Part shown: positions 93 through 24,775 of the stretch, one piece after another
How positions within the stretch are numbered: the first letter of the stretch is position 1
Layout: the number at the start of each line of letters is the position of its first letter
Virus record (IMG/VR): IMGVR_UViG_2571042636_000001
Location: 1-25,417 of that record
DNA from: a virus
Lineage: Duplodnaviria > Heunggongvirae > Uroviricota > Caudoviricetes
DNA length: 25,417 bases
Reading direction: 5' to 3' (one strand)
The notes under the pieces: generated by a model
What the model saw: only the letters and a program-made list of their open reading frames with translations
Told to the model about the DNA's origin: nothing
The model's database searches: none
Made by a program: the position numbers and the translations under genes

Positions 93-152
93 CTCCTTTT
101 TCAGGGAGGCGCTAACCTATCACTTGTCTAGGGTAGATGGTTAGGGCCTCGG
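93..152 (-). promoter_or_regulatory. Structured hok mRNA leader: Shine-Dalgarno plus an imperfect 12-bp inverted repeat just upstream
   Basis: On the plus strand, 106-117 (gaggcgctaacc) and 139-150 (ggttagggcctc) are inverted repeats with one mismatch and a 21-nt spacer, directly 5' of the hok ribosome-binding site in mRNA sense. hok-family mRNAs are known for extensive leader structure and antisense control; the antisense RNA itself was not resolved. Confidence 0.35.
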
Positions 153-344
153 TTAAACAAAAATGTTTTCCGGGGCCTTTCCACATTCGGCCTTCAGGTA
201 TTCCCTCCAGCCATCAGCCGAAAGGCACCCGCGCGAATTCTAGCCTGGTTTTTTCCCTTGTTTCAATCCGTTGAGGCCTGTCAGCCTTTTGATATAAAAT
301 TCCCGACCGTAGACATTATTCAGTCACGCATTTGATACATGCTT

Positions 345-371
345 CCGCCGGCGTTCGCGCCGGTTTTTTTT
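345..371 (+). terminator. Rho-independent terminator (GC stem, TTCG loop, run of 8 T)
   Basis: CCGGCG-TTCG-CGCCGG followed by TTTTTTTT read directly on the plus strand. The upstream transcript it serves is not identified. Confidence 0.55.
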
Positions 372-850
372 CGCCCTGTTGCTGTGTAGATCGTCATGCG
401 TGATCGAGGCGCGGTATTGATCCTTTTTTCAGTTTAATTTTGACTCTTAATTTTACACAGGCCGCGCCGCGTCTGGCTTCGTTGTTTGACGATTTTTTGA
501 TGCGATCCTTTCGTGATCGTTTCTCGTCTCGCGTAAAGTATGAAAACTCTTTTAATATCATGCGGTTTTATTGCTCCTGCCATTTGTGCGATCGTAAAAA
601 CCACTCTGAAAACTGCAAAAAATTTCAAAGCGTGAAATTTCAGATCTTCGCTTTTCCCTTAGTTACTGCGCGGGCTGGCTGTCATTTTTGCACGGCAGAA
701 AACTGAAAAACTGTTTCGACACAAAACCCGCGGGTTGGAGGGGGTAGCGCGGTTTACGTCACCTCACGCTTTACGTCACGCCGTTTGCGCGGTGTGCGCA
801 TACAGCGCCAGAATGGCACGCAGAACGATTAATCAGGTGGCAGATATGAA

Positions 851-878
851 AACGCACGGCCGGGACCGTGCGTTGCGT
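851..878 (-). terminator. Candidate intrinsic terminator ending the late tail operon
   Basis: 9-bp inverted repeat 851-859 / 866-874 (aacgcacgg / ccgtgcgtt) with a 6-nt loop; on the minus-strand RNA it is followed by a short U-rich tract, about 40 nt downstream of the stop of the 913-2610 gene. Confidence 0.45.
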
Positions 879-912
879 GATGGGGCGTTTATGTGGCTTT
901 TATGTCTGGTGT

Positions 913-2610
913 TCAGGCGATAATGTCGCCGTATTTTTCGCGCAGGCTCGTCGCCTGCAGGGCATCTGCGGCAAGTTCGCTGCTGTTCATTGGTGCGCCA
1001 GTGTTGCTATGGGTGTGGTTTGCTGTATGTGTGGCCAGTAATTGAATCAGATCCAGAATATCGATCAGCAACGTCAGCAGGTTAAGCCCTGACTTTTCCC
1101 GCGAGCCGCCGCGACCAATAAATACTGTCGGAGCGGTAAACTCCAGACCGCCGTCCGCTCTGCATGTTCTGCGGCCTCCCACGTTTTCGGTGAGGTCATG
1201 CTCAATGGTGGATATCGCCCCTTTGAGTTGAGTCAGCAAATCCTGCGCTACCATCTGGATATGCTCACCGGCTGCGATCGCATAATTGCCGGTAGTAAGG
1301 TGTTCTGTCTGGCCTGTCATCAGTTTGCTGGTACCAAGAACACTGGTTATGTCGTTTGCTTGGACTGTTGTTGTTCTGGTTGTTGTTGTGCGTTCTTCCT
1401 GATCGCTGTTAATGGTTCGCCTGGCTGAATGCTCCCTGATTTGCTGGTCGGTTTCTCTGTGCCAGCTTCCGTCAGTCGTGACGCGCTGAAACACTTCTGC
1501 GCGCTGTTGCTGCAGCTGTTCGCCGGGCTTTACATCAGGCAGGTTATGGCCTGCGGGTAAGATTTGCCTGATGACAGGTTTATCCGGTCGTCCTTCAATG
1601 TTGGATATTTCCACGATGGTGCCAGCCGGCGGGTAGGCAAAACATCCCGCCTCGCTACCAGCCATCGGGACGGGGAGTGGTACTGCCGGATAAACAGGCG
1701 TATCGCTTTTATCGTTGCCGTTCTCATCAAGCAGTTGCACATCGACGGCGTAGCGTGGGCGGAAACTGTCGGCAACATCGCCCAGGGTGACGGATTCCGT
1801 TGGGGCAATGACGCGCGCCAGCCTGGTATGTAGAGTACCGCTGGCCAGTTCCGGGAACTGTGTTTCCATCTGTCTGCGTAATGGTGATTTGGAAACAGGG
1901 CTACCCGTGGTGGTAAGGCGTTCCCATGTCAGGGTCATTTTCTCGTTGTTGAGGGCTACACGGGTAATGCGCCCGGCTGGAAGGTTCACGCCCGGTCGCA
2001 CAGTTTCCATAAACATGATGTCGATGCTGTTTCCGCCGCTTTGCCCGAGTGTGTACTGTTGCGGAATATCCGGCATGGTAATACTGGCAAACCGTGAATC
2101 CGATGCGCTTCCCACAAATACGGAACCGTCCGGCATTGGATGCCAGACGTAATCGCTGATACTGAATGCTCGCCCCAGCTGGCTAAGCAGTTGTGTTCCG
2201 CTGCCGCTGTGGGTGATGTAAGGTGTCGGAGTACCGACGTAATCCGCGTCTGGCGTGATGAAAACGATGCCGCTTTGTTTACCCAGATTATCGAGTACAT
2301 CCCGTAACGTTGGATGTTGCATGGAGCAGGGGAAATCAAAATCCAGCACGGCAGCTGCTTCACGGATAAAAAGGCGGCGTGAGCCATTTTCGGCGGGTTG
2401 ATCGCGTTCAATGTAGCCGGAGAAATAGCGCCATGCCTCACCATTACGGCCGAGATCAATTTGTATCATTGCGCCGGCAAGACTTTTTTTGGGTGGCAGA
2501 TTATTAACAGAAATGAAACCACGACCGGCAGCATTCAGGGTAAGAACAAGGCTGATATCGGCAATTTCCGCCAGCTCGCCATTAATCATACAGCGTTGGA
2601 TTAATTTCAT
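913..2610 (-). CDS. Putative baseplate central spike/hub protein (gpV / Mu gp45-like OB-fold region, histidine-rich C-terminal tip), 565 aa
   Basis: ATG at complement of 2608-2610 with a strong GAAGGAGGAAGG ribosome-binding site, overlapping the upstream stop (ATGA). The mid-region RYAVDVQLLDENG...PVYPAVPLPVPMAGSEAGCFAYPPAGTIVEISNIEGRPDKPVIRQILP fits the spike OB-fold pattern (G-x-V-x-V-x-F-x-x-G-D with flanking prolines). The C-terminus LLATHTANHTHSNTG carries an H-x-H type motif like metal-binding spike tips. Assignment is by motif recognition only. Confidence 0.45.
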   Translation of the reverse strand: MKLIQRCMINGELAEIADISLVLTLNAAGRGFISVNNLPPKKSLAGAMIQIDLGRNGEAWRYFSGYIERDQPAENGSRRLFIREAAAVLDFDFPCSMQHPTLRDVLDNLGKQSGIVFITPDADYVGTPTPYITHSGSGTQLLSQLGRAFSISDYVWHPMPDGSVFVGSASDSRFASITMPDIPQQYTLGQSGGNSIDIMFMETVRPGVNLPAGRITRVALNNEKMTLTWERLTTTGSPVSKSPLRRQMETQFPELASGTLHTRLARVIAPTESVTLGDVADSFRPRYAVDVQLLDENGNDKSDTPVYPAVPLPVPMAGSEAGCFAYPPAGTIVEISNIEGRPDKPVIRQILPAGHNLPDVKPGEQLQQQRAEVFQRVTTDGSWHRETDQQIREHSARRTINSDQEERTTTTRTTTVQANDITSVLGTSKLMTGQTEHLTTGNYAIAAGEHIQMVAQDLLTQLKGAISTIEHDLTENVGGRRTCRADGGLEFTAPTVFIGRGGSREKSGLNLLTLLIDILDLIQLLATHTANHTHSNTGAPMNSSELAADALQATSLREKYGDIIA

Positions 2611-3182
2611 GTTTTCCCTTCCTCCTTCACGCTCCCGATGCCAATCCAGTCCAGACCGGAGCCAATACCATCATTGATATTTTTCCAGAAAGTCTCCTGG
2701 GTATTCATTCCTTTATCCGGTACCTGCTCACTGCCGTTCTGTGTCTGCTGCTTTGCGATTGTTTTCTGTGAGCCACTGCGTGCCGATGCTTTTTCCGGCA
2801 CGCTTAATTTTTCCCTGAGGGTAAAGGTGACCTGCCAGTGCATCTTGCCCTGTTGTTCCGTGGCATCGATGCCGCCCGAAAAAACACCCTGTCGCATATT
2901 AATCGCCTTAGCAGTAGCGTTGGCGATGCGGTATGTTTTTTTGGCTCCGTTGCTTTCTGTTGCCTCCGCAAGCTGAAAAATACGGGTCAAAATAGCTTCA
3001 TCGTTAAAATCAATAATCCCCGACACGCGCAGCTCTTTGGCCTTGTTTCCCTGCTGGGCGCTCGTGGTGCTGGTTGATTGTCCGGACATATCTTTGTCCG
3101 GTAGTTGCATGGTGGCGCTGACGGTGATGTTGCGCAGCAGAATGGCTTCCCCGTCAAGCGCAAGGACAATCATCTGGGTCAT
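2607..3182 (-). CDS. Hypothetical protein, 191 aa, translationally coupled to the spike-like gene
   Basis: ATG at complement of 3180-3182 with an AAGGGA ribosome-binding site; its stop overlaps the downstream start. It sits in the late operon between the second tail fibre and the spike-like gene. No family recognised. Confidence 0.5.
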   Translation of the reverse strand: MTQMIVLALDGEAILLRNITVSATMQLPDKDMSGQSTSTTSAQQGNKAKELRVSGIIDFNDEAILTRIFQLAEATESNGAKKTYRIANATAKAINMRQGVFSGGIDATEQQGKMHWQVTFTLREKLSVPEKASARSGSQKTIAKQQTQNGSEQVPDKGMNTQETFWKNINDGIGSGLDWIGIGSVKEEGKT

Positions 3183-3876
3183 GTAGTGTTTCCCTTAGTG
3201 ATGAGAGATTATCGCCGACGAACAGCATCACAGCTGTAAAAACCCATTCGGGGTGTGGGATGTTTTTTTGTATCAGCACTGCGGCCTGGCTAAGGGCTCC
3301 CTTGTGGCAAAAGCGCCACACCGGGCAAAATTTTTGCCGGAGTGCGGCCTGCTGATCAGCGATTTCCTGTAAGGCTTTATCTCTCGCATTCATGAACTGA
3401 CGCAGTGATGATGACAATGTTTCCGGTGATGTGACGGCAGGAGTGGCTGCCTGTGCAATGGTTGCCGCCAGCGACATGCTGCGAGTGGTCTGTGTCGATA
3501 GCATTATCGGTTCCGGAAGTGATGTTACCGGTCTGGCGGGGATTTGCATTCTGCTGATGGCCAGTGAAAACTGGCTGGAGATCATGCGGGACATTCGTCC
3601 CACCTCTGGTAACGGAAATGCGCCTGAAAATTGCCTGGCGAGTGATAAAAACTCGCCAGCAGACGGGGCGCAAAATAACAGCGCCACAACGTCTTTTTCT
3701 GTGTTTTCTGTCAGATAAGGTAAAAGCGCGGATACAGCATTATCCGGGCTGAGGTAACGCCCTGATGGTGTAATGTTTCCCGTATTTTCTGACCATGGGT
3801 GGAGGCAAACCATTGAACAGGTAATAGCTATGGGGGCTGGTCGCAAAACAGAGCGTATCCATGTTGAATTGTTCAT
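3154..3876 (-). CDS. Hypothetical protein, 240 aa, immediately downstream of the second tail fibre
   Basis: ATG at complement of 3874-3876, preceded by AGGAAG 6 nt upstream and 24 nt after the fibre-2 stop. The protein is Ser/Thr/Ala/Pro-rich and lacks the usual tail-fibre-assembly C-terminal domain. No family recognised. Confidence 0.45.
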   Translation of the reverse strand: MNNSTWIRSVLRPAPIAITCSMVCLHPWSENTGNITPSGRYLSPDNAVSALLPYLTENTEKDVVALLFCAPSAGEFLSLARQFSGAFPLPEVGRMSRMISSQFSLAISRMQIPARPVTSLPEPIMLSTQTTRSMSLAATIAQAATPAVTSPETLSSSLRQFMNARDKALQEIADQQAALRQKFCPVWRFCHKGALSQAAVLIQKNIPHPEWVFTAVMLFVGDNLSSLRETLHDPDDCPCA

Positions 3877-3900
3877 TTGTTCTTCCTGTGTGTCCGGATA

Positions 3901-5457
3901 TTACCCCATTCCGTTCTGGCGTAATGTTGTTCCCGCAAATATTTTTGCCACCACAATACAGGGAAGAGGTCCATTTTTTGCGCTGGCTGTCTCCTCCAGT
4001 GTCGATGTATCCAGTGCATAGTAAGGTGTGTCTGGCATCACCACCCGTATTCTTACTGTTATTGTGCTCGCGGTAGCCGAGACAGAACCGACAAAATACT
4101 GAGCAGGAATGTATTGTCGGTTCTGATTCATGTAGAGATAACGTGGTTCGAGCAGAGCAGAAACAGCGATACCCACTCCTCCAACAGAGGATTTCCTGAC
4201 AGGATTAGATACATCCAGTTCCATAGCATAAATACGTGAACCATCCGGCAGACTTTTAAATGAATCCAGGTTGCTGTTCAGGGTACTTACAGCCACCTTT
4301 GGAATGACCGGATGAGCGCCATCAACAAATAAGTCTCCGGATTGTTGTCTGGACAGTAAATTGGTCGGCGCAGAAGAAATTTCGGGACCCTCTGGTGAAG
4401 TGGTGTCAAGAGATTCCATCTGTTTGCGAACAAAGGCCACACTGGCAATTTCATTACCTGCTGCATCATCCGGCGGTGTTGGTGTAGTCGGCTTTCCTGT
4501 GAATTCCGGGCTTTCCAGAGGAGCCCTTGTTTCAATAAGTTTCCTGAGTGCAACCTCGTTTACTTTCAGGTTTTCCCAGCCAGTCAGCCAGCCATTACCA
4601 GTGGACCAGTAACGGTTGTAATAAATATTGCCATTAATGCCGTAGAAAATAATGGCCTTTGCTGTATGTAACGGAAGTGGTGGGTTATGGTTTGCTTCCA
4701 GCCAGCGGATACTTATCACCCCCTGAAAAACAATGCCGGGAAGTACACCGTTTGCCCCATCCACATAATATTCTCCTGGCTCCACATATCTTGCCCATGC
4801 CAGAAAATCAGCTTCAGATTTAAACCTGACGGCCTCCCCCGGAATAAACCTGTGACCAAAACCAAATGCACCAGGTGTCGCCAGACGACCTTCAGAACGG
4901 TCACGGATACCATTTTGAGGTTCCATTGTGGCCGCTTTTTTTAGCCCGAGATTATCGCGTGATTCCTGTTGTGCCTCTTTGCCCTCATCAGCAATTTCTG
5001 ACAGGCGATTAGGTGCTTTCAGTGCTGTTTTCAGTTCCGGAGTGATATCCACCTGCCAGCTCTGCGGAGGGGCCGTGACTTGTGCAGACTGAGCAATGCC
5101 GCTGTATATAATCGTGAAATTACGAATAAGTGACTCGCCTGTTACTTTTTGTCGAACAGGCGTTTTTATTACGCCGCATAGTGTTCCGCTGGCCTGATGG
5201 ATGAGACAAATCCAGTCATAACTGAATGCACAGTCATCAGGAACAACCGCGCTACACACAATATTGTTCGGGCTTAACAGGCCGTAGGTCAGTTCATTCA
5301 CAGCATATGTAATTTTTTCTTCCGGAACGGTATTATCTTCGTGCGTTGGTTCCCGCTCCATCAGGGCAAAAATAATAGTGTCAGGGCGTGCAGGTAAATT
5401 ACTGGCTGTGCATTCAGCAACCCACTTTTCAAATGCTTTCGTCAACAATGCGCTCAT
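3901..5457 (-). CDS. Second tail fibre protein (shares the N-terminal domain of the first fibre, different distal part), 518 aa
   Basis: The first ~150 aa align by eye with fibre 1 (LPARPDTIIFAL vs GKPARPDTFVFAY; TYGLLSPNN vs QYGLLSPNA; FSYDWICLIHQASGTLCGVIKTPVRQK vs FEYNWIGLLNEESGVLCMIAHTPRQQK; WQVDIT vs WQIDFT). It has an internal collar-like motif (TGKPTTPTPPDDAAGNEIASVAFV), and the C-terminal half is unrelated to fibre 1. Confidence 0.7.
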   Translation of the reverse strand: MSALLTKAFEKWVAECTASNLPARPDTIIFALMEREPTHEDNTVPEEKITYAVNELTYGLLSPNNIVCSAVVPDDCAFSYDWICLIHQASGTLCGVIKTPVRQKVTGESLIRNFTIIYSGIAQSAQVTAPPQSWQVDITPELKTALKAPNRLSEIADEGKEAQQESRDNLGLKKAATMEPQNGIRDRSEGRLATPGAFGFGHRFIPGEAVRFKSEADFLAWARYVEPGEYYVDGANGVLPGIVFQGVISIRWLEANHNPPLPLHTAKAIIFYGINGNIYYNRYWSTGNGWLTGWENLKVNEVALRKLIETRAPLESPEFTGKPTTPTPPDDAAGNEIASVAFVRKQMESLDTTSPEGPEISSAPTNLLSRQQSGDLFVDGAHPVIPKVAVSTLNSNLDSFKSLPDGSRIYAMELDVSNPVRKSSVGGVGIAVSALLEPRYLYMNQNRQYIPAQYFVGSVSATASTITVRIRVVMPDTPYYALDTSTLEETASAKNGPLPCIVVAKIFAGTTLRQNGMG

Positions 5458-5463
5458 TACTTC

Positions 5464-6015
5464 TTAATTCTCGCTAATGTTCTGCGGTAATTCTGGCCAT
5501 ACAATCGCGGCATACGATGCTTTATCTGTAACTTGGCTGAATGTCATCTCCCGTAACGTTTTTGTATAAATACGGCAGGCTTTCAGTTTTTCCCTGTCTT
5601 CGTCGCTGATTAATCCCAGCAGCAGGTCTTTTTCCCATTCGCTGGTCATGATGCTGGCCTGTTTTAACAGTGCATCACGCTCATCTTCCGCTTTAAGTTT
5701 GTAGTCGAAGATAAAATTGCCATCGCGGTAAAACCAGTAACCAGGCACGGTAATACGGCGATTAGCGGTAATATCCGGAACTTCAATAACACTGGCGTTA
5801 CGGGGTTCAATGCCTGTCACATCCTTACCGACCCACACCACGCGCCCGTCCCCGGTGTAAACCATTTTTATTGTGTCGCTGGCAAAGTTCTTCTGTTCTT
5901 CATACCAGTTTTTGTCGTCTTCCGAAAAAAGCCAGGTGACACCATATTGTTTTGTCATATGATATTGTTCTGCGGTTTTCGGATTGCCCGCAGTAATATT
6001 TTTTAAATGCAACAT
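5464..6015 (-). CDS. Tail fibre assembly chaperone (P2 gpG-like), 183 aa
   Basis: ATG at complement of 6013-6015, starting 2 nt after the fibre-1 stop. Size and position are canonical for a fibre assembly chaperone directly 3' of a gpH-type fibre gene. Confidence 0.65.
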   Translation of the reverse strand: MLHLKNITAGNPKTAEQYHMTKQYGVTWLFSEDDKNWYEEQKNFASDTIKMVYTGDGRVVWVGKDVTGIEPRNASVIEVPDITANRRITVPGYWFYRDGNFIFDYKLKAEDERDALLKQASIMTSEWEKDLLLGLISDEDREKLKACRIYTKTLREMTFSQVTDKASYAAIVWPELPQNISEN

Positions 6016-6017
6016 TG

Positions 6018-7718
6018 TTAAACACTCGCCACGTTATACCAGGTGCCGTTAATCAGTTTCTGAAGCGGTCGGTAATACACGCCGCCGATGTTATCTGCCG
6101 AATTACTTCCGGTTTCCTGCACATTAATACCAGATAATCCATGGCCTGAAGGTGAGCGAAATGTCCAGGATATCTGGTTACCTCCCGGGTTGTAATACAT
6201 TTCGGAACCATAACGCACATCCTGCACGCCGCCTGTTTTGGTCTGGTAACGGGCATCAAAGTTTCCGTAGTCTGACGGTGTTACTCGCCCGGTAACGTTT
6301 ACAGGTTTATTACTCTGAATGCTGCCACTCTGAAAACGCAACACATGCACGCTATTGGCATAAACATCCAGCAGGCCATCACCATTCTGTTTCAGGCCGG
6401 TATCGTTATCCCCGAAAGCAATTGAGTTTCCGCCCAGCGCATTCTGAACGCCGATACCCAACGCACCGTTAACTTTCGAACCACCGCCAACAGATACTGC
6501 GTGTGACATGGAAACTTCACCCGTCCGCAAATTAATAGTGAACGGACGCAGGGGGCCAATATCGCCATTTTCCCCCTGGTTTTCCTGTGTTGGAATAAGG
6601 TGCAGGCACTCTTCCGAACGACGAAAAATCAGACCAAAGGCTTCGTTGAAAATCCTCAGCGCATTAACACCACGGATTTTCAGTTCCCCGCTCATGGTGT
6701 CGCCGTCACGCTCAACGGCGCCTTTTGCCTTATCCATTGCGGCTTTTACTGCCTTTGATGTGGCGGCGCGGTCTTCTGCGTCGCTGTCGGTGGAGTTGCT
6801 GTACTGCGCAAAGCCTTTCTCCTTCAGTGTTGCGTCCGGATGATGGCGGGATTTTTCGTGCTCTGCCAGTGCATTGCTTTGTTCTTCGTCGGGAGTCTCC
6901 GGGCGCAGGTCCTGTGGGCCGTCTCCTGTCATTTTTGCAAGTGGCGCGACAAAGTGTCGGAAGCCGTTACCGTCTGTATAAGACGCATGTTCCTGGCGGG
7001 CGCAGAACGTAAAAACGGTATTCCATTCGCCGGTAACAAATCCCTGCCAGCTTGCATCAATCCAGAGGGTATCCCCGACCGCAGCCGGCAGGCTGTAAGG
7101 TTCGCGCAGACTGACGCGCAGACCTCCCACATAACCCACGCCGGCGGCAACAGTAGCGGTACCGTCCTGATAGCTGACCTGAAAACCATCCCCCAGAAAA
7201 GCGGCTTCACCGTAGTGATCAAACGCCAGCAGCCGGCGGGCCTCATCCATTCCTGCAAGGCGTGCAGTGAAATCAATCTGCCAGACATCAGCGCTGACAT
7301 CGATATGCATTGCTACGGCTGCGCCGTCAAACTCCATGGAAAATGTGCGGATCAGGTTGTTTCCCTGCACGCCGTTCGCTGTTTTAATTTTTTGCTGACG
7401 AGGTGTGTGTGCAATCATGCAGAGCACGCCGCTTTCTTCGTTCAGCAGACCGATCCAGTTGTATTCGAAGTCGCCGACTGTCGTGTCCAGAATGATGGAA
7501 AACGCGGTCGCGTTCGGCGACAGGAGGCCGTACTGGGTGACCGGCGCACGATACTGAATCATGGATTCATCAGGGAGTATCTCATCGCGGGGGATCTCTG
7601 CGGATTCATCCTGTCCCGGAATATATGCAAAAACAAATGTATCCGGGCGCGCAGGTTTTCCACTGATGATTTGATTTGCGCACCAGTGTTCGTACTGTTC
7701 AGTAATAATCGTGCTCAT
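6018..7718 (-). CDS. Tail fibre protein (P2 gpH-like), 566 aa
   Basis: ATG at complement of 7716-7718, overlapping the upstream stop. It has motifs typical of enterobacterial P2-type fibres (HEKSRHHPDATLKEKGF, TSKAVKAAMD, NALGGNSIAFGDNDTGLKQNGDGLLDVYANS) and the C-terminal LINGTWYNVASV. Confidence 0.8.
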   Translation of the reverse strand: MSTIITEQYEHWCANQIISGKPARPDTFVFAYIPGQDESAEIPRDEILPDESMIQYRAPVTQYGLLSPNATAFSIILDTTVGDFEYNWIGLLNEESGVLCMIAHTPRQQKIKTANGVQGNNLIRTFSMEFDGAAVAMHIDVSADVWQIDFTARLAGMDEARRLLAFDHYGEAAFLGDGFQVSYQDGTATVAAGVGYVGGLRVSLREPYSLPAAVGDTLWIDASWQGFVTGEWNTVFTFCARQEHASYTDGNGFRHFVAPLAKMTGDGPQDLRPETPDEEQSNALAEHEKSRHHPDATLKEKGFAQYSNSTDSDAEDRAATSKAVKAAMDKAKGAVERDGDTMSGELKIRGVNALRIFNEAFGLIFRRSEECLHLIPTQENQGENGDIGPLRPFTINLRTGEVSMSHAVSVGGGSKVNGALGIGVQNALGGNSIAFGDNDTGLKQNGDGLLDVYANSVHVLRFQSGSIQSNKPVNVTGRVTPSDYGNFDARYQTKTGGVQDVRYGSEMYYNPGGNQISWTFRSPSGHGLSGINVQETGSNSADNIGGVYYRPLQKLINGTWYNVASV

Positions 7719-8350
7719 GCTTCATCTGCCTGTAATGTGTAATGTTCCACGGACAGGCCGTAATGTCCTGCCTGTAGCGAAGCGGTTAACCAGATGGTGT
7801 CCTTTCTCACCGTTGCTTCTGCTGTGTGATACCTGTAATGGCCATCGAATGTGCCGGCTGTCAGCCGGGCAGTGGTTGTATTGATTACCTGAAAGAAATA
7901 GCGCCTGCAGGTACGACCATACTGGCGCACGAGCTGCATCATCAGTGCGTTGTTTTCACTTAACTGTGTGTCATTAATACGCAGTAAAATAACGTCCCAG
8001 TCATGCTGCAGTTGCCGTTCCAGTGTTTTAACGTCTCCCACGCTAAGACGCTTAAAGATGCGTTCGAAGCCGGCGCGTTCGCCAGAGTCCTGAGCGTTAA
8101 TAAACGCGTGTTTCACTCTTAAGCGAAATAACGAAACCGGCTCACCTTTAAATCGGGTGATATTGCGCTGATAAGCCAGCAGGTTAAGTAAAGGCTCTGC
8201 GCAGGTGTCGACATCAATCTGCTGTAGTGGCCACGTCAGCCAGCTGTATACCTTTTCCCAGTAGCGATGCGATGAATGTGCCAGCGTTAACGGCTCGCCT
8301 TTATTCATCCAGGTGGGGAGCGGGAATTCAGGGATCTCCGGAAGTTTCAC
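7715..8350 (-). CDS. Baseplate/tail protein (P2 gpI-like), 211 aa
   Basis: GTG start at complement of 8348-8350 with a GGAGGTG ribosome-binding site, overlapping the baseplate-J stop (GTGA). Position between a baseplate-J gene and the tail fibre, and size, match gpI-type proteins. Confidence 0.5.
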   Translation of the reverse strand: MKLPEIPEFPLPTWMNKGEPLTLAHSSHRYWEKVYSWLTWPLQQIDVDTCAEPLLNLLAYQRNITRFKGEPVSLFRLRVKHAFINAQDSGERAGFERIFKRLSVGDVKTLERQLQHDWDVILLRINDTQLSENNALMMQLVRQYGRTCRRYFFQVINTTTARLTAGTFDGHYRYHTAEATVRKDTIWLTASLQAGHYGLSVEHYTLQADEA

Positions 8351-9531
8351 GCGCTCACCTCCACAGTAAGGGATTCCAGACGAGGAACAGCCAGATCACT
8401 GAGAATATCCGGAAGAGAAAATGTAACCGACTCCACCTGTGGAAATACCTGGTGGATCTCTTCGCCCAGTCTGGACATGCTGAAACGGCTGTACGGCCAT
8501 GTTTTCTGAACGTCATAATCGCTGTTTTCGCGAAATGCACAGCGAACCAGATTTTCCACATTGCGCAATAACGTCTGAATTTCCTCATCGCTGAGGTTCA
8601 GCGTTGCATACAACCAGAGTGTCACGGTCAGGGTGTGGCGTGTTTCAGGCATGGAAAAACAGCGCAGATCATCACCGTGTCCGTGATGACCTTCATCGTT
8701 AATGAATGCGTTTACGGCATCAACGAACGGTTCGGATGCGATGCCGGTATCCAGCAGAATGTAAGCATTTGCTGTGCCGGGGCCGCGTGGTGCGTCATGC
8801 AGAAAATAGATGCGGTCGGCACTGATACCGGCAACGCCGGCAATTAACCCCCGGTAAACGGCATCGGTGTGATAAGCGCCGGCAAGATTAAACTGATTGC
8901 GAACACGATCACGCAGCTCGTCATCGCTTTCTTCGTTGGCACCCGGTGTGGTCAGCCAGTTTTCATCGTTCTCAACACCGGCAATACCATCAATCGCCAC
9001 CGGAAGGATGCGGTAATATCCCGGCGCAAGGTTAAAGCCGGCTCCGGCCTGTTCCGCAGAAACATCGATGTTCATGCTGAGTGTTCCTGCCGGAATAACG
9101 GTATCCCTGACAACGGTCAGCGTATAAATCACGCCGTTAATGCGTTCTGTCTGAATCTGCGTACCGGCCGGCACGGTAACTGCGCGATCAATGTCGTTTT
9201 TGGTGAAACGAATCACGCCGGCTGCGTGCGTGGCGGCCTTGCGTTGCAGGTTTACCGCCCAGGCAAAAACATCAACGAATACACCGCTGGCATCAGCCAG
9301 AAACAGGTTTTTCATCACCACATTAACCAGCGCATCTTTCAGCCACATCACGGGTTTTGTGGTGATAGCTGTAATCAGTCGCCAGAACGGTGACATGCGG
9401 GATGTGTTGGTGATAAGCCCTTCGTCTTTGACAATGGCTTCAAATTCAGCGCGCGCCTGTTCTTCTGTTACCGGCATGCCGTTATCAGCCAGAATGCGCT
9501 CGTAATCTGCGGTAGGTTTGCCGTTAATCAT
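8347..9531 (-). CDS. Baseplate J-like protein (P2 gpJ / Mu gp47 family), 394 aa
   Basis: ATG at complement of 9529-9531 overlaps the end of the upstream gene (ATGATTAA); the ORF track's TTG at 9534 is a less likely start. Sequence character (GVIRFTKNDIDRAVTVPAGTQIQTERINGVIYTLTVV...) and position fit the Baseplate_J family. Confidence 0.65.
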   Translation of the reverse strand: MINGKPTADYERILADNGMPVTEEQARAEFEAIVKDEGLITNTSRMSPFWRLITAITTKPVMWLKDALVNVVMKNLFLADASGVFVDVFAWAVNLQRKAATHAAGVIRFTKNDIDRAVTVPAGTQIQTERINGVIYTLTVVRDTVIPAGTLSMNIDVSAEQAGAGFNLAPGYYRILPVAIDGIAGVENDENWLTTPGANEESDDELRDRVRNQFNLAGAYHTDAVYRGLIAGVAGISADRIYFLHDAPRGPGTANAYILLDTGIASEPFVDAVNAFINDEGHHGHGDDLRCFSMPETRHTLTVTLWLYATLNLSDEEIQTLLRNVENLVRCAFRENSDYDVQKTWPYSRFSMSRLGEEIHQVFPQVESVTFSLPDILSDLAVPRLESLTVEVSA

Positions 9532-9874
9532 CAAGAGATACCGTAAAAGTCAGGGGTTCAAAAAAATCTTCGGTGTGGGCGCTAATCAGCAGGCGACCAG
9601 AAAGCGGGGTTTCTTCTGTCACACTGACCGTGCCAGGTGTGATGCGCTCATCATCTTCAATCAGCAGTGTCATCTGCATCATGATGTCGGCACGAAGCGT
9701 CGGGCTTTTTTCAGCCAGCAGGCGCGTTGCCAGTCCGCTCTCAATGATGGCGTGCTGGCAGTCCTGGGCAATACTTTCTCTGTTGTTGCATAACACCGGC
9801 TCACTGGCGCTGTTCAGCGTGAGATTGCGGCCGGTGATGAGCAAATCAATGTAAAGCGGTTTATCAGTATGCAT
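9524..9874 (-). CDS. Putative small baseplate protein (gpW/gp25-like by size and position), 116 aa
   Basis: ATG at complement of 9872-9874 overlaps the tape-measure stop. At 116 aa and directly 5' of the baseplate-J gene, it is where a gpW-type wedge protein is expected. Sequence similarity is weak. Confidence 0.35.
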   Translation of the reverse strand: MHTDKPLYIDLLITGRNLTLNSASEPVLCNNRESIAQDCQHAIIESGLATRLLAEKSPTLRADIMMQMTLLIEDDERITPGTVSVTEETPLSGRLLISAHTEDFFEPLTFTVSLDD

Positions 9875-11960
9875 GTAGCTCCATCCACTCGTTGAGGCGG
9901 GCAGGGGATGGATCCTGCACATTGACGTTGACCACGCGACGGGAGTTGTCGATTGTGGTCTGGTTTTCGCTGTTGTTCTGCATTTCTGCCGCAATGCCAC
10001 CAGGCCCCGCACTGATGGCTTTACCGCCGGTTAATACGGAGCCTTCGCCACTTCCTGTGCTTTCTGATGTGCCGATGTTAACGCCGGGGATCATGTTGAG
10101 TTTGTCCACAATCCAGCCCCATGAATCACTGAATGACTGTTTCACCAGTTCCCAGAGGTTACTGAAAATGTTCAGGATGCCGCCCGCGAGATCCTTCAGG
10201 GCATCCAGTGGTGAATGCGTGGAAAAATAGTTAACCAGTGCATTCCAGCCGTCCTGGATTGTGTTCCATGCATTGCCGAACCATGTCCCCATACTGCCGA
10301 CCATTTCAGCCACCCACTGAAAGGCGGCGGTATCCATCAGCGCGGCTTTAATCTCATCCCAGCGGGTGATCAGGAAATAAATGCCCACCCCCAGCGCAGC
10401 CAGTGCCAGGATGATTAATGTGATGGGGCTGAAAAGTAACTGTGTTGCAATAGCAGCTCCGCTGGTGACTGCGGTGTAGATTTTCATTGCTATGCCGGCG
10501 GCACCCAGTGCAACAGAATAAAGCCAGAGTCCGGCGCGCTGTAATTTCAGCAGCGCCAGCTGAATTTTTGCTTTGACGTTGTATGTTCCCATGGCAATGG
10601 ACATGGCCAGATACAGCGCCCTGACCGTTCGGGCAACTACAGTGAATGCCCACATGGTAGCCGTCAGTGTGCGTTTCAGCAGAATGAGAATCTTCAGCGG
10701 CGCAACGGCTGCCAGCCAGACCAGCCGCAGTCCTGTCCAGACAAACTTCGCCACACCCACCATAATGTTGACAACAGCACCCACTGCGGCAATGCCCAGC
10801 AGGGCGGCAGACAGTAAACCAATGGCCCGTGTGATATTGGGATACAGACGTAACCAGGCAACAAAGGATTTACCGCCTTCGTTGCTTTTCTGGATAAACG
10901 GGTACAGAACAGGCAACAACTGCGTGCCAATTTCAATGCGAATGCCGTTAATAATTGCAGCGGCCTGTTCCCATGGATCGGCCATGGCTTGTGCCATTTC
11001 GACAGCCTTATCCATACCTTTAATATTGCCCAGCGTGGCGATATTCTTTTCAAGTCCGCCAATGTCCGCATTGAGTAATTTAATCATGGCCACAGCTTCA
11101 TCGGAGCCAAAGGCGCTTTTCAGCAAATCGGAATCAGCCACTTTTGACAGATCACCAAATTTGCCCCTGATAAGTTTCATGATCTCGACAACACTTTTCA
11201 TCGTGCCGTCTTTATTCACGAAATTAAGCCCCAGCTTTTTCTGGGCGCTGCCTACTGCGGCAAGAAATGCTTTGTACTTTGTCCCGGCCTCGCTGCCACT
11301 CATGGTGGCCTGCAGTTGTCCCAGCACAGCGAACTGTTCAGCCGCATCAATACCGGCCGCTTTTGCACTGGCACCCAGCGTGGTGAACGCCGCTGACATG
11401 TTATCGCCGGTTGTTTTAAACATTTGCACGGCGGTGGCGGTTTGCCCGGCGACCTGCTCCACCCATTTGCTTTTTCCCATGGCATCAGCCTGGTCTTTAA
11501 AGATGCCGTACATGGTGCCCATGTAGGCGGTAATGGTCTGGCTGCTGGATTTGGTTGCTGCTGCCACCGTTGCTGATGCGGTGGTGAAGCGGGACAGCTC
11601 ATCGTCAGTTAACCCGGCAATGGCTGACTGGATGTCGTAAGAAGCACGCACAAAATCCTGCGCAGCCCCGCCGTATTCCATAGTGAAATCAACGGCGGCG
11701 CGGCTGAGTTTACGCAATCCGGACTCTGCGACGCCCAGTGATTTCACCTCACCGAGCGCCCTGTCCATTTCAATGGCTGGCATCAGTGCCCCCTGAATGG
11801 CTGCACCTACTCCCCAGAGCGCAGCGCCTCCGGTAGCAATGTCCCGAAAGGCTCCCCGACTTGTTGCAGCAAATCCCTGAACCTGTCGCCCGGCTGCACG
11901 CAACGGCCTTGTCAGGCGGTCTGTCAGTTCAAGAAGTAATTCAAGGCGCTGTTGTGACAT
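9864..11960 (-). CDS. Tail tape measure protein, 698 aa
   Basis: Long ORF right after the chaperone frameshift pair. It is Ala/Gly-rich and helical in character with central hydrophobic segments, typical of tape measure proteins, and its ATG overlaps the stop of the frameshifted chaperone frame (TAATG). Confidence 0.8.
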   Translation of the reverse strand: MSQQRLELLLELTDRLTRPLRAAGRQVQGFAATSRGAFRDIATGGAALWGVGAAIQGALMPAIEMDRALGEVKSLGVAESGLRKLSRAAVDFTMEYGGAAQDFVRASYDIQSAIAGLTDDELSRFTTASATVAAATKSSSQTITAYMGTMYGIFKDQADAMGKSKWVEQVAGQTATAVQMFKTTGDNMSAAFTTLGASAKAAGIDAAEQFAVLGQLQATMSGSEAGTKYKAFLAAVGSAQKKLGLNFVNKDGTMKSVVEIMKLIRGKFGDLSKVADSDLLKSAFGSDEAVAMIKLLNADIGGLEKNIATLGNIKGMDKAVEMAQAMADPWEQAAAIINGIRIEIGTQLLPVLYPFIQKSNEGGKSFVAWLRLYPNITRAIGLLSAALLGIAAVGAVVNIMVGVAKFVWTGLRLVWLAAVAPLKILILLKRTLTATMWAFTVVARTVRALYLAMSIAMGTYNVKAKIQLALLKLQRAGLWLYSVALGAAGIAMKIYTAVTSGAAIATQLLFSPITLIILALAALGVGIYFLITRWDEIKAALMDTAAFQWVAEMVGSMGTWFGNAWNTIQDGWNALVNYFSTHSPLDALKDLAGGILNIFSNLWELVKQSFSDSWGWIVDKLNMIPGVNIGTSESTGSGEGSVLTGGKAISAGPGGIAAEMQNNSENQTTIDNSRRVVNVNVQDPSPARLNEWMELHAY

Positions 11961-12441
11961 TACGATCCCTTAAAAGCACGGATAATGCCGTTATTGACGG
12001 CGATGCTCATATTTTCCCAGTAGTGGTTATCCAGCCAGACGGCGGCAGCCAGTGACTGCGGCGAGTCATCCTCGCCGGGCAGCCAGTGGCGGCGCAGAAT
12101 CAGCATCCGGGTAAGGTCATTGCGATCAATGGCCCCCAGATGGCTTTTTATTTTTTTACGGTGATTTCCACTTCCGGCACAAACTCGTTATTCACGGCTG
12201 TTGCCAGGCTGGCCGGCATTCCTGGTTTTTCCAGCAACTGGTTCAGCAGATCGCGGTGCTCTTTAATCACGATACGGCGCAGGTAGTTTTTCAGCGGTGC
12301 AATTTTATTGTCCGGCATGAAGTCGTTCTGCAGGTCGTTGTAGTCTTTCACCGTCGGGATAAACGTCAGTTCATGCTCGCCGACCTGTAAAGTGATGGCG
12401 TTCTCTGCGGTGGTTTGGGGGTTTTTATCGTTCATCATCAT
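11960..12441 (-). CDS. Frameshift-extended tail assembly chaperone (gpE+E' type, about 159 aa) made by programmed -1 slippage
   Basis: The -1 frame entered at the heptamer A AAA AAA (complement of 12151-12157) stays open for 63 further codons (IKSHLGAIDRNDLTRMLILRRHWLPGEDDSPQSLAAAVWLDNHYWENMSIAVNNGIIRAFKGS) and stops at complement of 11960-11962, 1 nt overlapping the tape-measure ATG. Translated by hand from the sequence. Confidence 0.55.
12148..12441 (-). CDS. Tail assembly chaperone (P2 gpE-like), 97 aa
   Basis: ATG at complement of 12439-12441. Small acidic protein immediately 5' of the tape measure gene; it ends ...VEITVKK-stop on a slippery A7 run. Confidence 0.7.
   Translation of the reverse strand: MMMNDKNPQTTAENAITLQVGEHELTFIPTVKDYNDLQNDFMPDNKIAPLKNYLRRIVIKEHRDLLNQLLEKPGMPASLATAVNNEFVPEVEITVKK
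12151..12157 (-). other. Slippery heptamer A_AAA_AAA (programmed -1 ribosomal frameshift site)
   Basis: Run of 7 T on the plus strand (7 A in mRNA sense) in the last two sense codons of the chaperone ORF. The chaperone/tape-measure frameshift arrangement is conserved across tailed phages. Confidence 0.55.
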
Positions 12442-21323: not shown

Positions 21324-22350
21324 AAAGAAGAAATATTCTGTGACACACGATGCCGGAGCAAAAAAAACGGCCGGCAAAATGACGTTTATTGAATTTGGTG
21401 ACCCCGAACCGGTTGCTGCATGGGGCTGTTATTACGGCTCGCTGTGGGATGGCTATAACGGCTGGTACACGCCGCCCATTGAACGCATGGATCTCGCCAT
21501 GTTGTCCAATATCGCACCGTATCACGGCGCGGTATTGCGTGCGCGCGTCAATATGATCATGCAGGGTTTTCGGGGCGGTGGTGGTATGACACACGCCGCC
21601 ATGGCGGCAGCGGTGACCAATCTGCTGATATTCGGGGATATGGGGCTGCTTAAAGTACGTAACGGCTTCGGTCGGGTGGTGCGTCTGCATACGTTGCCTT
21701 CTCTGTACCTGCGGCGTAACAACGAGGGAGGCACGGTGATTGTGCAGGCGGCACTGGAAGATCTCGTGTATCCGCCAGGCGAAGTGGTGTTCGTGGCAAT
21801 TTATGACCCGCAACAGCAGGTTTACGGTGTCCCGGATTATATCCACGGGATGGAATCCGCCATGCTGAATGTGGATGCCACCCGCTTTCGCCGCAAGTAT
21901 TACAAGAACGGCGCACACCTCGGTTATATCCTGTATTCCACTGACCCGGATATGACTCCCGAGCTCGAGGCGGAATTCCGTAAAAAGATAGAGGCGTCAA
22001 AAGGGGCGGGCAATTTTAAATCCATGTTTATCAATATACCTGGCGGAGACAAAGAAGGCGTTAAGGTGATCCCTATCGGGGATTCAGGTACAAAAGATGA
22101 GTTCCTGAATATAAAAACCATCAGTGCCCAGGATCAGCTCGTTGCGCACCGTTTTCCACCCGGACTTGCCGGCATCATTCCCGCAAATACGGCCGGGTTG
22201 GGTGACCCACTGAAATCCCGCGAAGCATATTACAGGGATGAGGTTATCCCGATGCGCCGCCTGATTATGGAGGGGATCAACAGCGATCCGGATATCAGAC
22301 GACTGGGGGAGGTGAAATTTATTCTTGATTTTGATGAACCCATGGAGTGA
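21316..22350 (+). CDS. Portal protein, P2 gpQ-like, 344 aa
   Basis: ATG at 21316-21318, overlapping the terminase stop. Length is the same as recalled for P2 gpQ, and the gene sits 3' of the large terminase. Confidence 0.8.
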   Translation: MSKKKKYSVTHDAGAKKTAGKMTFIEFGDPEPVAAWGCYYGSLWDGYNGWYTPPIERMDLAMLSNIAPYHGAVLRARVNMIMQGFRGGGGMTHAAMAAAVTNLLIFGDMGLLKVRNGFGRVVRLHTLPSLYLRRNNEGGTVIVQAALEDLVYPPGEVVFVAIYDPQQQVYGVPDYIHGMESAMLNVDATRFRRKYYKNGAHLGYILYSTDPDMTPELEAEFRKKIEASKGAGNFKSMFINIPGGDKEGVKVIPIGDSGTKDEFLNIKTISAQDQLVAHRFPPGLAGIIPANTAGLGDPLKSREAYYRDEVIPMRRLIMEGINSDPDIRRLGEVKFILDFDEPME

Positions 22351-22415
22351 TGTGCGGTATGGGGAAAGAGCGGGTAAAATCGGCGGCAGTAAAACGCTGT
22401 TCCGGGAGGTGGAAA

Positions 22416-22673
22416 ATGCGCAGACAGAAAGCGCGATGTCATTGCTGCGGTGCACATGCAGTGATTGAGAAAACAGCCTGGAAAACCGATCAGTTTGCTG
22501 ATGTGTATTACCGTTGCACTCGTCTCGAGTGCGGACATACCTGGGTGATGAACCTGACCTACTCGCACACACTGGTGCCCAGCGGGCTGGAGAATGGTGT
22601 GTTAAAGCTGTTGATTGAACGGATGCGCCCGGAAGAAAAACAAATGGCGCTGGAGTTGTTGCAGGCCGGATAG
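22416..22673 (+). CDS. ogr: Ogr/Delta-family zinc-finger late transcription activator, 85 aa
   Basis: ATG at 22416-22418 preceded by GGGAGGTGG. Cys pattern C-x2-C ... C-x4-C (RCHCCGAHA ... YYRCTRLECGHTW ... TYSHTLVPSG) aligns by eye with Ogr of P2 and B of phage 186. An in-frame GTG at 22347 is a possible alternative start. Confidence 0.65.
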   Translation: MRRQKARCHCCGAHAVIEKTAWKTDQFADVYYRCTRLECGHTWVMNLTYSHTLVPSGLENGVLKLLIERMRPEEKQMALELLQAG

Positions 22674-23815: not shown

Positions 23816-24775
23816 TTACTCCTTGTCCATTGCGTACAGCCCATTAACCAGAGCAAACTGTGGCACCCCGTCCGCGATGAAAGTCGCATTAACTCCGCAG
23901 GCTTCGCGGATAGCGGGTGCCACAATCTCCGCCCCGCCACCGACAACCATCACCCGCCCGTAACCCGAAAAACCCGCCAGCGCGCGGATCACGCGTTGTT
24001 TCAGTGTCTCTTCCTTTTCACGAATAACCGCCATCAGGCTGTCGTAATGCGCGCCATTGTGGATGTGCTGGCGCAGCCAGGCTTCATCATGGCGATGTTC
24101 AATAATGGTATTAGCGATATGGTGACTGGTGCGCATACCGTTGGTGGCCATCACCGACAGCACGGCATCGGCCATCAGGGAAACGCCTACGTGTGGATCG
24201 CAAAACACCTGGCTGATACCTGCCAGTTGCCCCTGAACCTTTGCCACATCCAGCGTGGTTCCGCCTAAATCAACAATAAGCAGGGATTCAAACGGACTCA
24301 TATCAGCCAGTGCTTTAAAGCCAGCCGGAATGGATTCAGGCATAACCCGCACGTTACGGATAGTGAATGCCTCACCGTTCTGGTACTCCACCGGGCGCAT
24401 AACGTTCGCTTTTTTGCGGTTGATGTTGGCCATATCCGGCTGTGCGTTTGTATCGAAATACTCGCTCAGTGGCAGGGTGACAACCACATCCACCTCCTGT
24501 GGTGTGATGCCTGATTTGACCAGCGCGTGGTGAATGGCGATTACATTCACATCGCTGTACTGGTATTGCGTGTCGGTCGTCTGGATAAAGCGATCGCTGA
24601 CCGGATCAAAACCATAGCGCACGCCATCAAGCATGTAGTTCGCAGGCTGCGAGCCACCGAACGGCGCAGACCATTCCGACTTGAAGCTGTTCGGGCTGAT
24701 GGCGTTGCGGCATTCGCCGTTCTCAGTCCATGCCAGCTTGATGTTGGTGGAGCCGTCGTCGATACAAATTTTCAT
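23816..24775 (-). CDS. parM: ParM (StbA) actin-like segregation ATPase, 319 aa
   Basis: ATG at complement of 24773-24775 with an AAGGAAAA ribosome-binding site. The N-terminus MKICIDDGSTNIKLAW, and ISPNSFK, YSDVNVIAIHHAL, VMPESIPAG, LIVDLGGTTLD, FSGY..VMVVGGGAEI and LVNGLY match the actin-fold phosphate and adenosine motifs of plasmid R1 ParM. Confidence 0.9.
   Translation of the reverse strand: MKICIDDGSTNIKLAWTENGECRNAISPNSFKSEWSAPFGGSQPANYMLDGVRYGFDPVSDRFIQTTDTQYQYSDVNVIAIHHALVKSGITPQEVDVVVTLPLSEYFDTNAQPDMANINRKKANVMRPVEYQNGEAFTIRNVRVMPESIPAGFKALADMSPFESLLIVDLGGTTLDVAKVQGQLAGISQVFCDPHVGVSLMADAVLSVMATNGMRTSHHIANTIIEHRHDEAWLRQHIHNGAHYDSLMAVIREKEETLKQRVIRALAGFSGYGRVMVVGGGAEIVAPAIREACGVNATFIADGVPQFALVNGLYAMDKE

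Follow-up and report, generated by a model that had tools for sequence, protein, structure and literature searches.

A second tail fibre gene with a paralogous anchor domain in the tail module of an HP1-like Escherichia coli prophage

Tail modules encoding more than one receptor-binding protein are known from several phages. T4 has long and short fibres, the T5-like phage DT57C has LtfA and LtfB, and lambda has Stf in addition to J, so that two specificities are possible. The locus described here carries two fibre genes whose products start with related anchor domains, which raises the question of whether both fibres are mounted on one virion and how a baseplate would hold them. The window (the whole stretch of 25,417 nucleotides that was analysed) covers the late genes of a temperate, HP1-like myophage (Peduoviridae; HP1/P2 family) integrated in E. 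coli. Over orf33-35, E. coli 33-6 (CP050031) and CP131_Sichuan (CP053720) match it at 99.8%. From the tape measure gene to orf35, gene order and homology are like those of the tail modules of HP1 (orf27-orf35), ESSI-2, SI7 and vB_YenM_324, the standard HP1 order being tape measure, DUF2590, J, I, fibre, chaperone, orf33, orf34, orf35. These four phages have one fibre gene, whereas the window has a second one, whose anchor is paralogous, placed between the chaperone gene and orf33, where it breaks this order (Table 1). The host-recognition module is enlarged by an extra fibre slot; the late region is otherwise complete, with portal, terminase, capsid, sheath, tube, lysis and Ogr genes all found. 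Among 50,697 phage records there was no cultured representative of the lineage, the best orf33 match being 35% identical. A second fibre in Peduoviridae or HP1-like phages was also sought in the literature, with no relevant result.

Table 1. Features of the tail module, with window coordinates and the evidence for each assignment
Feature	Position	Strand	Evidence
HP1 orf35-type baseplate protein, 565 aa	913..2610	-	phrog_2258 E 1.3e-232
HP1 orf34-type baseplate complex protein, 191 aa	2607..3182	-	PF25759 E 2.5e-53
HP1 orf33 homologue, 240 aa	3154..3876	-	tblastn; phrog_1677 E 2.8e-38; synteny
Fibre 2, accessory tail fibre, 518 aa, intact	3901..5457	-	ORF; PF12571; homologues; dN/dS
Fibre 2 tip A, residues 358-518	3904..4386	-	phrog_33169
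Fibre 2 conserved collar motif RAPLESPEFTGKPTTPTPPDDAAGNEIASVAFVRK, tip-exchange junction	4423..4527	-	identity break vs 679-aa variant
Fibre 2 middle globular domain, ~residues 185-300, DRSEGRLATPGAFGFG motif	4558..4905	-	phrog_2636
Fibre 2 anchor, residues 1-145	5023..5457	-	PF12571 E 9.5e-12; paralogue of fibre 1 anchor
Tail fibre assembly chaperone (Caudo_TAP; P2 gpG / Mu U / lambda Tfa), 183 aa	5464..6015	-	PF02413 E 3.2e-22; phrog_136 E 3.9e-58
Fibre 1, canonical tail fibre, 566 aa	6018..7718	-	PF12571, Phage_fiber_2, gp37_trimer
Baseplate protein (P2 gpI / HP1 orf30 type), 211 aa	7715..8350	-	Tail_P2_I E 2.4e-4; phrog_1228 E 5.6e-81
Baseplate wedge protein (P2 gpJ / HP1 orf29 type)	8347..9534	-	Pfam Baseplate_J E 1.1e-31; phrog_6

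The canonical fibre is fibre 1, whose gene comes right after the gpJ-gpI wedge genes, with a start that overlaps the gpI stop. The fibre 1 anchor is orthologous to that of the single-fibre phages HP1, SI7 and ESSI-2 (40-49% identity) and 93-99% identical among relatives. The gpI-type protein can be aligned with HP1 orf30, SI7 gp19 and others. In phage E217 the subunit equivalent to gpI holds the fibre (PMC10329688), and by analogy the gpI-type protein of the window is likely the fibre-docking subunit. The orf35-type protein, which has faint similarity to the VgrG / gp5 OB-fold, is likely the hub or spike. Fibre 1 is built from the anchor (approximately residues 1-157), a P2 H-type repeat (297-335) and a Mu S / P2 H-like tip (342-566) that matches Mu S (PDB 5yvq, E 3.4e-19) as well as the P2 gpH C-terminus (E 7e-29). 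The Caudo_TAP chaperone gene starts 2 nt past the fibre 1 stop; among relatives its product varies along with the fibre 1 C-terminus, and its C-terminal third is conserved. Repeat, tip and following chaperone gene are like those of the P2 gpH/gpG and Mu S/U pairs; P2, however, has one fibre, and the window has two fibre genes.

The second fibre gene is found one gene beyond the gpJ-gpI-adjacent position, after the chaperone gene. According to the original prediction, the window encodes two fibres at 6018-7718 and 3901-5457 that share their first ~150 residues and have unrelated distal regions, with a gpG-type chaperone gene after the first alone. Each of these points was confirmed. Both ORFs are intact, lie on the minus strand and have exactly these coordinates, and the Caudo_TAP gene follows fibre 1 only. 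BLASTP aligned residues 1-154 of fibre 1 with residues 1-142 of fibre 2 at 36% identity (57/157, E 7e-26), and both proteins match PF12571 above the Pfam gathering cut-off of 23 (fibre 1: E 7.6e-29, 101.1 bits; fibre 2: E 9.5e-12, 45.6 bits). Beyond the N-terminal domain, no further BLASTP segment was obtained at E < 1. As judged from the alignment, the 'shared' anchor is homologous, not identical. The rest of fibre 2 consists of a middle globular domain, the collar motif, which is also present in P2 gpH, and tip A, the presumed receptor-binding end. In tblastn searches the middle domain matched fibres of Rac-SA53, Goslar and phiP27, and it is present twice in longer fibre 2 variants of 645-679 aa. 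In AF2 monomer models, the pLDDT of fibre 2 was 52 overall, with ~75 for the anchor and the middle domain and <50 for the tip. Foldseek with the anchor model gave weak matches only, to A511 gp105 and the phi812 arm (E ~0.02).

To place the two anchors, 160 HP1_ORF34 loci were surveyed. One anchor gene was present in 124 of them and two anchors in 11, all of the window's own lineage. The other anchors in the survey, 137 in number, were all of the fibre 1 type, and a fibre 2-type anchor as the sole fibre was never seen (0/137). None of 78 HP1-like phage records had two anchors in the module. Additionally, the arrangement with two fibres is kept in Salmonella and Yersinia enterocolitica. The fibre 2 anchor is 33-36% identical to fibre 1 anchors and 24-32% identical to those of single-fibre phages, and the anchors of the E. 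coli, Salmonella and Yersinia fibre 2 genes are 53-93% identical to each other. A recent tandem duplication was rejected: no DNA-level repeat was found between the anchors and the proteins are 35% identical, so the duplication is old. The fibre 2 anchor is an old, separate paralogue that occurs only as second fibre and only in this Escherichia/Salmonella/Yersinia lineage. It is under purifying selection with a dN/dS of approximately 0.15 (0.14-0.16 for the anchor and 0.18-0.19 for the whole of fibre 2, compared to relatives).

These data bear on how the second fibre would be attached. Both anchors might compete for the same six baseplate positions, giving a random mix per virion or a predominance of one fibre, as a form of host-range bet-hedging. 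Membership of one Pfam family and similar predicted secondary structures would fit such a competition, and on the side of the baseplate no lineage-specific change was found in gpI, while J and I share 74-79% identity with their counterparts in a single-fibre Edwardsiella outgroup. A C-terminal extension of gpI was considered as a docking marker for fibre 2; it is lineage-specific in an alignment of 7 sequences but equally long in 24/105 single-fibre loci and was discarded. Against competition for the same sites, the anchors have only 33-36% identity, yet both clades are kept distinct and differ in constraint (anchor dN/dS 0.04 for fibre 1 and 0.14-0.16 for fibre 2). Furthermore, if fibre 2 could fill the canonical site, occasional cases of a fibre 2-type anchor as sole fibre would be expected among the 137. 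We therefore consider a shared set of sites rather unlikely, though it deserves to be kept in mind. On the reading that we prefer, with both fibres mounted, fibre 2 does not simply replace fibre 1 at the six canonical sites; it would probably dock by its own contacts, either at an additional position of the J/I wedge or on fibre 1 itself.

A different view would be that fibre 2 is a recombination remnant without function which, expressed or not, is absent from particles. RefSeq lists fibre 2 as two pseudogene fragments and gives one of them the name 'shikimate transporter'. Additionally, fibre 2 has no chaperone of its own, and in E. albertii the slot holds a short 285-aa protein and a separate 352-aa ORF, so this slot is not uniformly occupied by one long fibre. 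A disrupting mutation in fibre 2, which would have spoken against the original prediction, was looked for and none was found. The reading frame is uninterrupted both in the window and in relatives, and a cluster of 43 sequences includes the same 518-aa protein at 94% identity; the RefSeq pseudogene calls are therefore annotation artefacts. Besides the intact ORF, a dN/dS of 0.14-0.19 and a two-fibre layout with orthologous anchors that is preserved across E. coli, Salmonella and Yersinia argue against a leftover. The same is true of the spacing of the genes: gaps of 6 nt (chaperone stop to fibre 2) and 24 nt (fibre 2 to orf33) with purine-rich ribosome-binding sites are tight within the late operon and suggest translational coupling. 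Taken with this evidence, a non-functional fibre 2 appears very improbable.

Models based on an invertible segment or on an internal promoter were rejected. An invertible segment of the Mu G / P1 C type would need inverted repeats around alternative fibre C-termini encoded on opposite strands, and an invertase. Long inverted repeats are missing (none exceeds 27 nt, and those present are 70-90% complementary), no plus-strand ORF of more than 85 aa lies inside fibre 2, and the tail module contains no recombinase. In Mu, the fibre is varied by inversion of the G segment, whereas in the window variation comes with a second gene and recombination, and neither inverted repeats nor an invertase are present in the module. 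An internal promoter was likewise dismissed, as no promoter-like or terminator-like sites were matched on the minus strand between 700 and 8400.

Recombination has shaped the distal part of fibre 2. In relatives, the protein varies in length from 285 to 861 aa and carries differing tips, and several of these variants come with a DUF4376 chaperone gene. The distal parts recombine at two junctions, namely the border between anchor and shaft and the conserved collar motif. At the first junction, mosaicism is seen against one relative (L001), with a dS of 0.23 in the anchor and of <= 0.02 over residues 151-518. At the second, the 81% identity to a 679-aa variant over residues 1-357 ends at the collar motif. 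Tip A itself is rare. An exhaustive search of 1.84 billion representative proteins yielded only 21 clusters with tip A at E <= 1e-3, always at the C-terminus, and a word-index homologue search with tip A alone found one protein. It is also carried by PF08400, collagen-repeat and YadA-type stalks. Two Mu-like enterobacterial prophages (L006 and L180) have the same layout of fibre, Caudo_TAP gene and second fibre as the window, with nearly identical tip A and middle domain. Their second fibre starts with a lambdoid PF08400 N-terminus, whereas fibre 2 of the window starts with a paralogue of the first fibre's anchor.

DUF4376 proteins were experimentally identified as fibre chaperones in Alteromonas phages, such as gp27 of V22 and gp9 of A5 (PMC7289586, PMC10579305). 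In relatives of the window, a DUF4376 gene directly follows several fibre 2 variants whose tip is a different one. The window differs from these systems: tblastn with four DUF4376 (PF14301) proteins gave no match below E 0.1 in the window, and no intact chaperone gene adjoined tip A in any context seen. In L006, a DUF4376 gene is reduced to its C-terminal half, and in a Mu-like prophage Com/Mom come after tip A. Tip A fibres of 350, 518 and 842 aa all stop 24-25 nt before orf33. We infer that tip A of the window folds without a dedicated adjacent chaperone; the fold of the tip and its independence of a chaperone are read from gene context, the AF2 models being poor. Alternatively, fibre 2 could use the chaperone of fibre 1 or a host chaperone.

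The original prediction had offered the 240-aa protein encoded downstream as a possible non-canonical assembly chaperone of fibre 2. In favour of this, the gene is immediately downstream of fibre 2 across a 24-nt gap, neither a fold nor a family function is known for its product (Pfam and NCBIfam gave no match), and the first ~10 residues differ according to the adjacent cassette. A test for membership placed it outside the Caudo_TAP family. In tblastn, the protein matched 26 phage records, including HP1 and HP2 orf33, at 91-96% coverage (E 3e-9 for HP1 and 3e-31 for ESSI2_ev040). In the single-fibre phages HP1, SI7 and ESSI2_ev040, orf33 directly follows the fibre chaperone, and it lies between the fibre and chaperone genes and orf34-orf35, overlapping the orf34 start. 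It is 79-98% identical to the window copy whichever tip fibre 2 has (79% beside a tip A fibre, 91% beside a tip B fibre). Furthermore, relatives with a dedicated fibre 2 chaperone use a DUF4376 protein whose gene is inserted before orf33, and in Mu-like prophages no orf33 is present close to the tip A fibres. We identify the 240-aa gene as the orf33 orthologue; it belongs to the core of the HP1-type tail block and is not specific to fibre 2. Considering its homology, its position in single-fibre phages and the lack of co-variation with the tip, the chaperone idea is unsupported and we regard it as most improbable. The original prediction had asked whether fibre 2 and the 240-aa gene behave as one swappable cassette: the distal part of fibre 2 is exchanged among relatives, but the 240-aa gene is independent of the tip.

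Overall, the data are probably best explained by an HP1-like late region with a canonical fibre 1 and an accessory fibre 2, which has a paralogous anchor and a swappable tip, both being mounted. Both fibres would be translated from a single late transcript and built into the virion, which would then have two receptor specificities; at the level of sequence, a dual-fibre virion is plausible. In T4, DT57C and lambda, the receptor-binding proteins have unrelated attachment domains or one branches off the other, whereas both fibres of the window have versions of the same P2/HP1-type anchor domain. More tentatively, one lineage of contractile-tail phages of the P2/HP1 type may mount two different sets of fibres together on a simple six-fold baseplate and use the paralogous anchor as a plug-in platform for varied receptor-binding ends, including a rare chaperone-free tip and, perhaps, an esterase tip as well as a split adaptor with a separate binding protein.

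Engineered tailocins and retargeted phages are mainly built on tails of the P2, HP1 and R-pyocin type, which have been assumed to carry one fibre type at six sites. If fibre 2 is mounted as proposed, the diverged copy of the anchor would show how such a baseplate holds two specificities, and it would provide a ready-made second attachment domain together with a tip whose folding seems to need no chaperone. As a putative determinant of host range, fibre 2 is invisible in current annotation, because RefSeq mis-annotates its ORF as pseudogene fragments.

The tape measure gene and the gene of a 565-aa baseplate protein delimit a closely packed series of ORFs, all on the minus strand, within which two tail fibre genes lie (Table). 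Elsewhere the window encodes a portal protein, both terminase subunits (large and small), a scaffold, a P2-type capsid protein, a head completion protein, gpR, gpS, a DUF2586 sheath, an HP1 Orf24 tube, a tail assembly chaperone, an endolysin and the late activator Ogr/Delta, whose gene immediately follows the portal gene. Because the late region is complete and proteins of the HP1 ORF34 family and of a PHROG baseplate family are present, the window is a full prophage of the HP1-like Peduoviridae. E. coli chromosomes contain prophages that match it at 93-99.8% identity, and the orf33-35 block was present in 48 of 5,426 complete genomes. A DNA-level search of phage records returned nothing close to the window except for the fibre 1 tip and its chaperone: positions 5567-6748 (fibre 1 C-terminus and chaperone N-terminus) share 87-94% DNA identity with phiP27 and with a record listed as Actinobacillus phage vB_Apl-pPE4; an E. 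coli-type fibre tip is unexpected in such a host. A ParM/StbA actin-like segregation gene adjoins the late region. The 162-aa mechanical ORF for DUF2590 is an overcall; since the protein has 116 aa in relatives and the Pfam match starts at residue 55, the gene probably starts near 9874 and overlaps the end of the tape measure gene. A 300-aa ORF antisense to fibre 1 is probably a by-product of codon composition.

Table. Genes of the tail fibre region and other features of the window
Feature	Position	Strand	Basis
Tape measure	9864-11960	-	ORF
DUF2590	9524-10012	-	ORF
Baseplate_J	8347-9534	-	ORF
P2 gpI-like	7715-8350	-	ORF
Fibre 1, 566 aa	6018-7718	-	ORF
183-aa protein, Caudo_TAP	5464-6015	-	ORF
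Fibre 2, 518 aa	3901-5457	-	ORF
240-aa protein	3154-3876	-	ORF
191-aa protein, HP1 ORF34 family	2607-3182	-	E 2.5e-53
565-aa protein, baseplate protein	913-2610	-	PHROG match
ParM/StbA	23816-24775	-	E 3e-82
Ogr/Delta	22347-22673	+	
300-aa antisense ORF	6840-7742	+	

Pairwise alignment bore out the original observation of two fibres with a common N-terminus and unrelated distal parts. BLASTP aligned residues 1-154 of fibre 1 with residues 1-142 of fibre 2 (36% identity, E 7e-26) and gave no segment at E < 1 beyond this one, and both N-termini match PF12571 in Pfam. The first ~150 residues, described as shared, are thus homologous anchors but not identical ones. Fibre 1 additionally carries a repeat of the P2 H type and a trimerisation region of the gp37 type; as originally noted, a gpG-type chaperone, the Caudo_TAP protein, follows it. 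The first 165 residues of each fibre were compared among relatives. Fibre 1 anchors share 93-99% identity across E. coli and Salmonella, and 40-49% with the single fibre that HP1, SI7 and ESSI2 each have. Across E. coli, Salmonella and Yersinia, the anchors of fibre 2 share 53-93% identity, but only 24-36% with all other anchors. By this pattern, fibre 1 is the orthologue of the canonical fibre and fibre 2 an old paralogue.

In a survey of 160 loci found via orf34 (80 from genomes sampled once per species, 80 from IMG/VR), 124 had one anchor gene and 12 had two. Eleven of these 12 belong to the window's own lineage (orf34 identity at least 94%), and same-lineage prophages of Salmonella and Yersinia enterocolitica keep the two-fibre layout. 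The remaining locus, from Morganella morganii (L053), repeats the whole J-I-fibre-chaperone-orf33-orf34 block in tandem (146-12225), with an ORF at 5201-6697 that fuses the orf35 N-terminus to J; it either arrived at two fibre genes by another route or is an artefact of assembly. In this survey, the 137 anchors located outside the second slot were all of fibre 1 type. Edwardsiella, the nearest outgroup (orf34 66%), has a single fibre, and none of 78 HP1-like phage records had two anchors within the module.

The 240-aa protein encoded after fibre 2 had been suggested as possibly its non-canonical chaperone, and comparison with relatives was to show whether the two swap together as a cassette. 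It matched no Pfam or NCBIfam family; its PHROG match is phrog_1677, and tblastn found homologues in 26 phage records (21-35% identity over >90% of the length), including orf33 of HP1 and HP2. The gene order in HP1, SI7 and ESSI2_ev040 is J, I, single fibre, chaperone, orf33, orf34, orf35. Homology and gene order together place the 240-aa gene in the core of the HP1-type tail block, and it is present also where there is one fibre. Among near relatives, how well it matches the copy in the window does not track the fibre 2 tip: identity is 98% beside the same 518-aa fibre and 79% beside a 350-aa fibre with the same tip, versus 91% beside a 679-aa fibre with a different tip. Variation is limited to the first ~10 residues, at the cassette junction. 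The chaperone role was therefore rejected, and the original interpretation is supported in part.

Exchange of fibre 2 itself was observed. Its forms in the lineage range from 285 to 861 aa with different distal parts: 350, 518 and 842 aa, all with the same tip (tip A, residues 358-518 in the window); 619 aa; 645-690 aa, in each case with a DUF4376 gene next; 861 aa, with genes for DUF4376 and DUF1353 proteins after it; and 285 aa, with a separate 352-aa ORF after it. Compared with the relative L001, dS is 0.23 in the anchor and at most 0.02 in residues 151-518, which places a recombination breakpoint at the anchor/shaft border. The 679-aa variant is 81% identical through residue 357 and loses identity afterwards, the loss falling at a conserved collar motif common to P2 gpH. 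Fibre 2 looks functional and modular; dN/dS is 0.14-0.16 in its anchor and 0.19 over residues 1-357 (fibre 1 anchor, 0.04). Among the E. coli contigs, one set (L016-L018) has a GDSL/SGNH lipase-domain gene whose N-terminus is off the contig and which ends 45 nt ahead of orf33; this may be a fibre 2 form tipped with an esterase. The 285-aa protein (E. albertii locus L019, 7307-9247; also L102) consists of anchor, collar and short C-terminal repeats, the 352-aa ORF matched no family, and the two may be a split adaptor and receptor-binding protein. RefSeq/PGAP splits the intact fibre 2 ORF into two pseudogene fragments (L001, 9524-10558; L002, 7064-8575, equivalent to window 3901-5457), one called 'shikimate transporter', which looks like a name-propagation error hiding the gene.

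Tip A is rare: a search of 1.84 billion representatives yielded 21 clusters at E <= 1e-3. It is C-terminal in all of them, on PF12571, PF08400, collagen-repeat or YadA-type trimeric stalks. Three lengths of tip A fibre occur in the HP1-like lineage, and all end 24-25 nt ahead of orf33. Com and Mom genes come next in one Mu-like prophage, and in another (L006) the DUF4376 gene after the fibre keeps only its C-terminal half. In Alteromonas phages, DUF4376 proteins have been demonstrated to act as fibre chaperones (PMC7289586, PMC10579305). No DUF4376-like sequence was found within the window, and variation of the Caudo_TAP gene follows the fibre 1 tip rather than tip A. From these gene contexts, we infer that tip A can do without a dedicated chaperone encoded next to it. 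The tail clusters of L006 and L180, both Mu-like prophages, run fibre, Caudo_TAP, second fibre; the latter combines a lambdoid N-terminus (PF08400) with a middle domain and a tip A nearly identical to those of the window.

Fibre 2 starts 6 nt past the chaperone stop and orf33 24 nt past fibre 2, with AAGAAG and AGGAAG, respectively, ahead of the starts. Neither promoter-like nor terminator-like sites were found on the minus strand from 700 to 8400, nor were long inverted repeats. Given these features, J to orf35 reads as one late transcript without an invertible segment.

In phage E217, a loop of the gpI-equivalent wedge subunit holds the fibre N-terminus (PMC10329688). The C-terminal 60 residues of gpI in the window, after a GRTCRRY motif, resemble a short aromatic repeat (…Y.YH.A…) present once or twice. 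Forms with two copies are seen in the dual-fibre lineage and likewise in roughly a quarter of single-fibre loci; as a lineage-specific docking change this extension was rejected, not being specific to the two-fibre lineage. In the surveyed loci the fibre 2 anchor is never that of a sole fibre, and its constraint differs from that of the fibre 1 anchor, which modestly favours docking of fibre 2 via separate contacts rather than mere competition with fibre 1 for the six canonical sites. At the gene level there is good support for two intact fibres, for the paralogy of the anchor, for the exchange of cassettes and for orf33 being a core gene, and we infer that both fibres are mounted on the virion. 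Multi-fibre phages and fibre mosaicism are well known. What is new here is that the second fibre of an HP1/P2-type tail is built on a paralogue of the same anchor; we found no description of such an arrangement in the literature.
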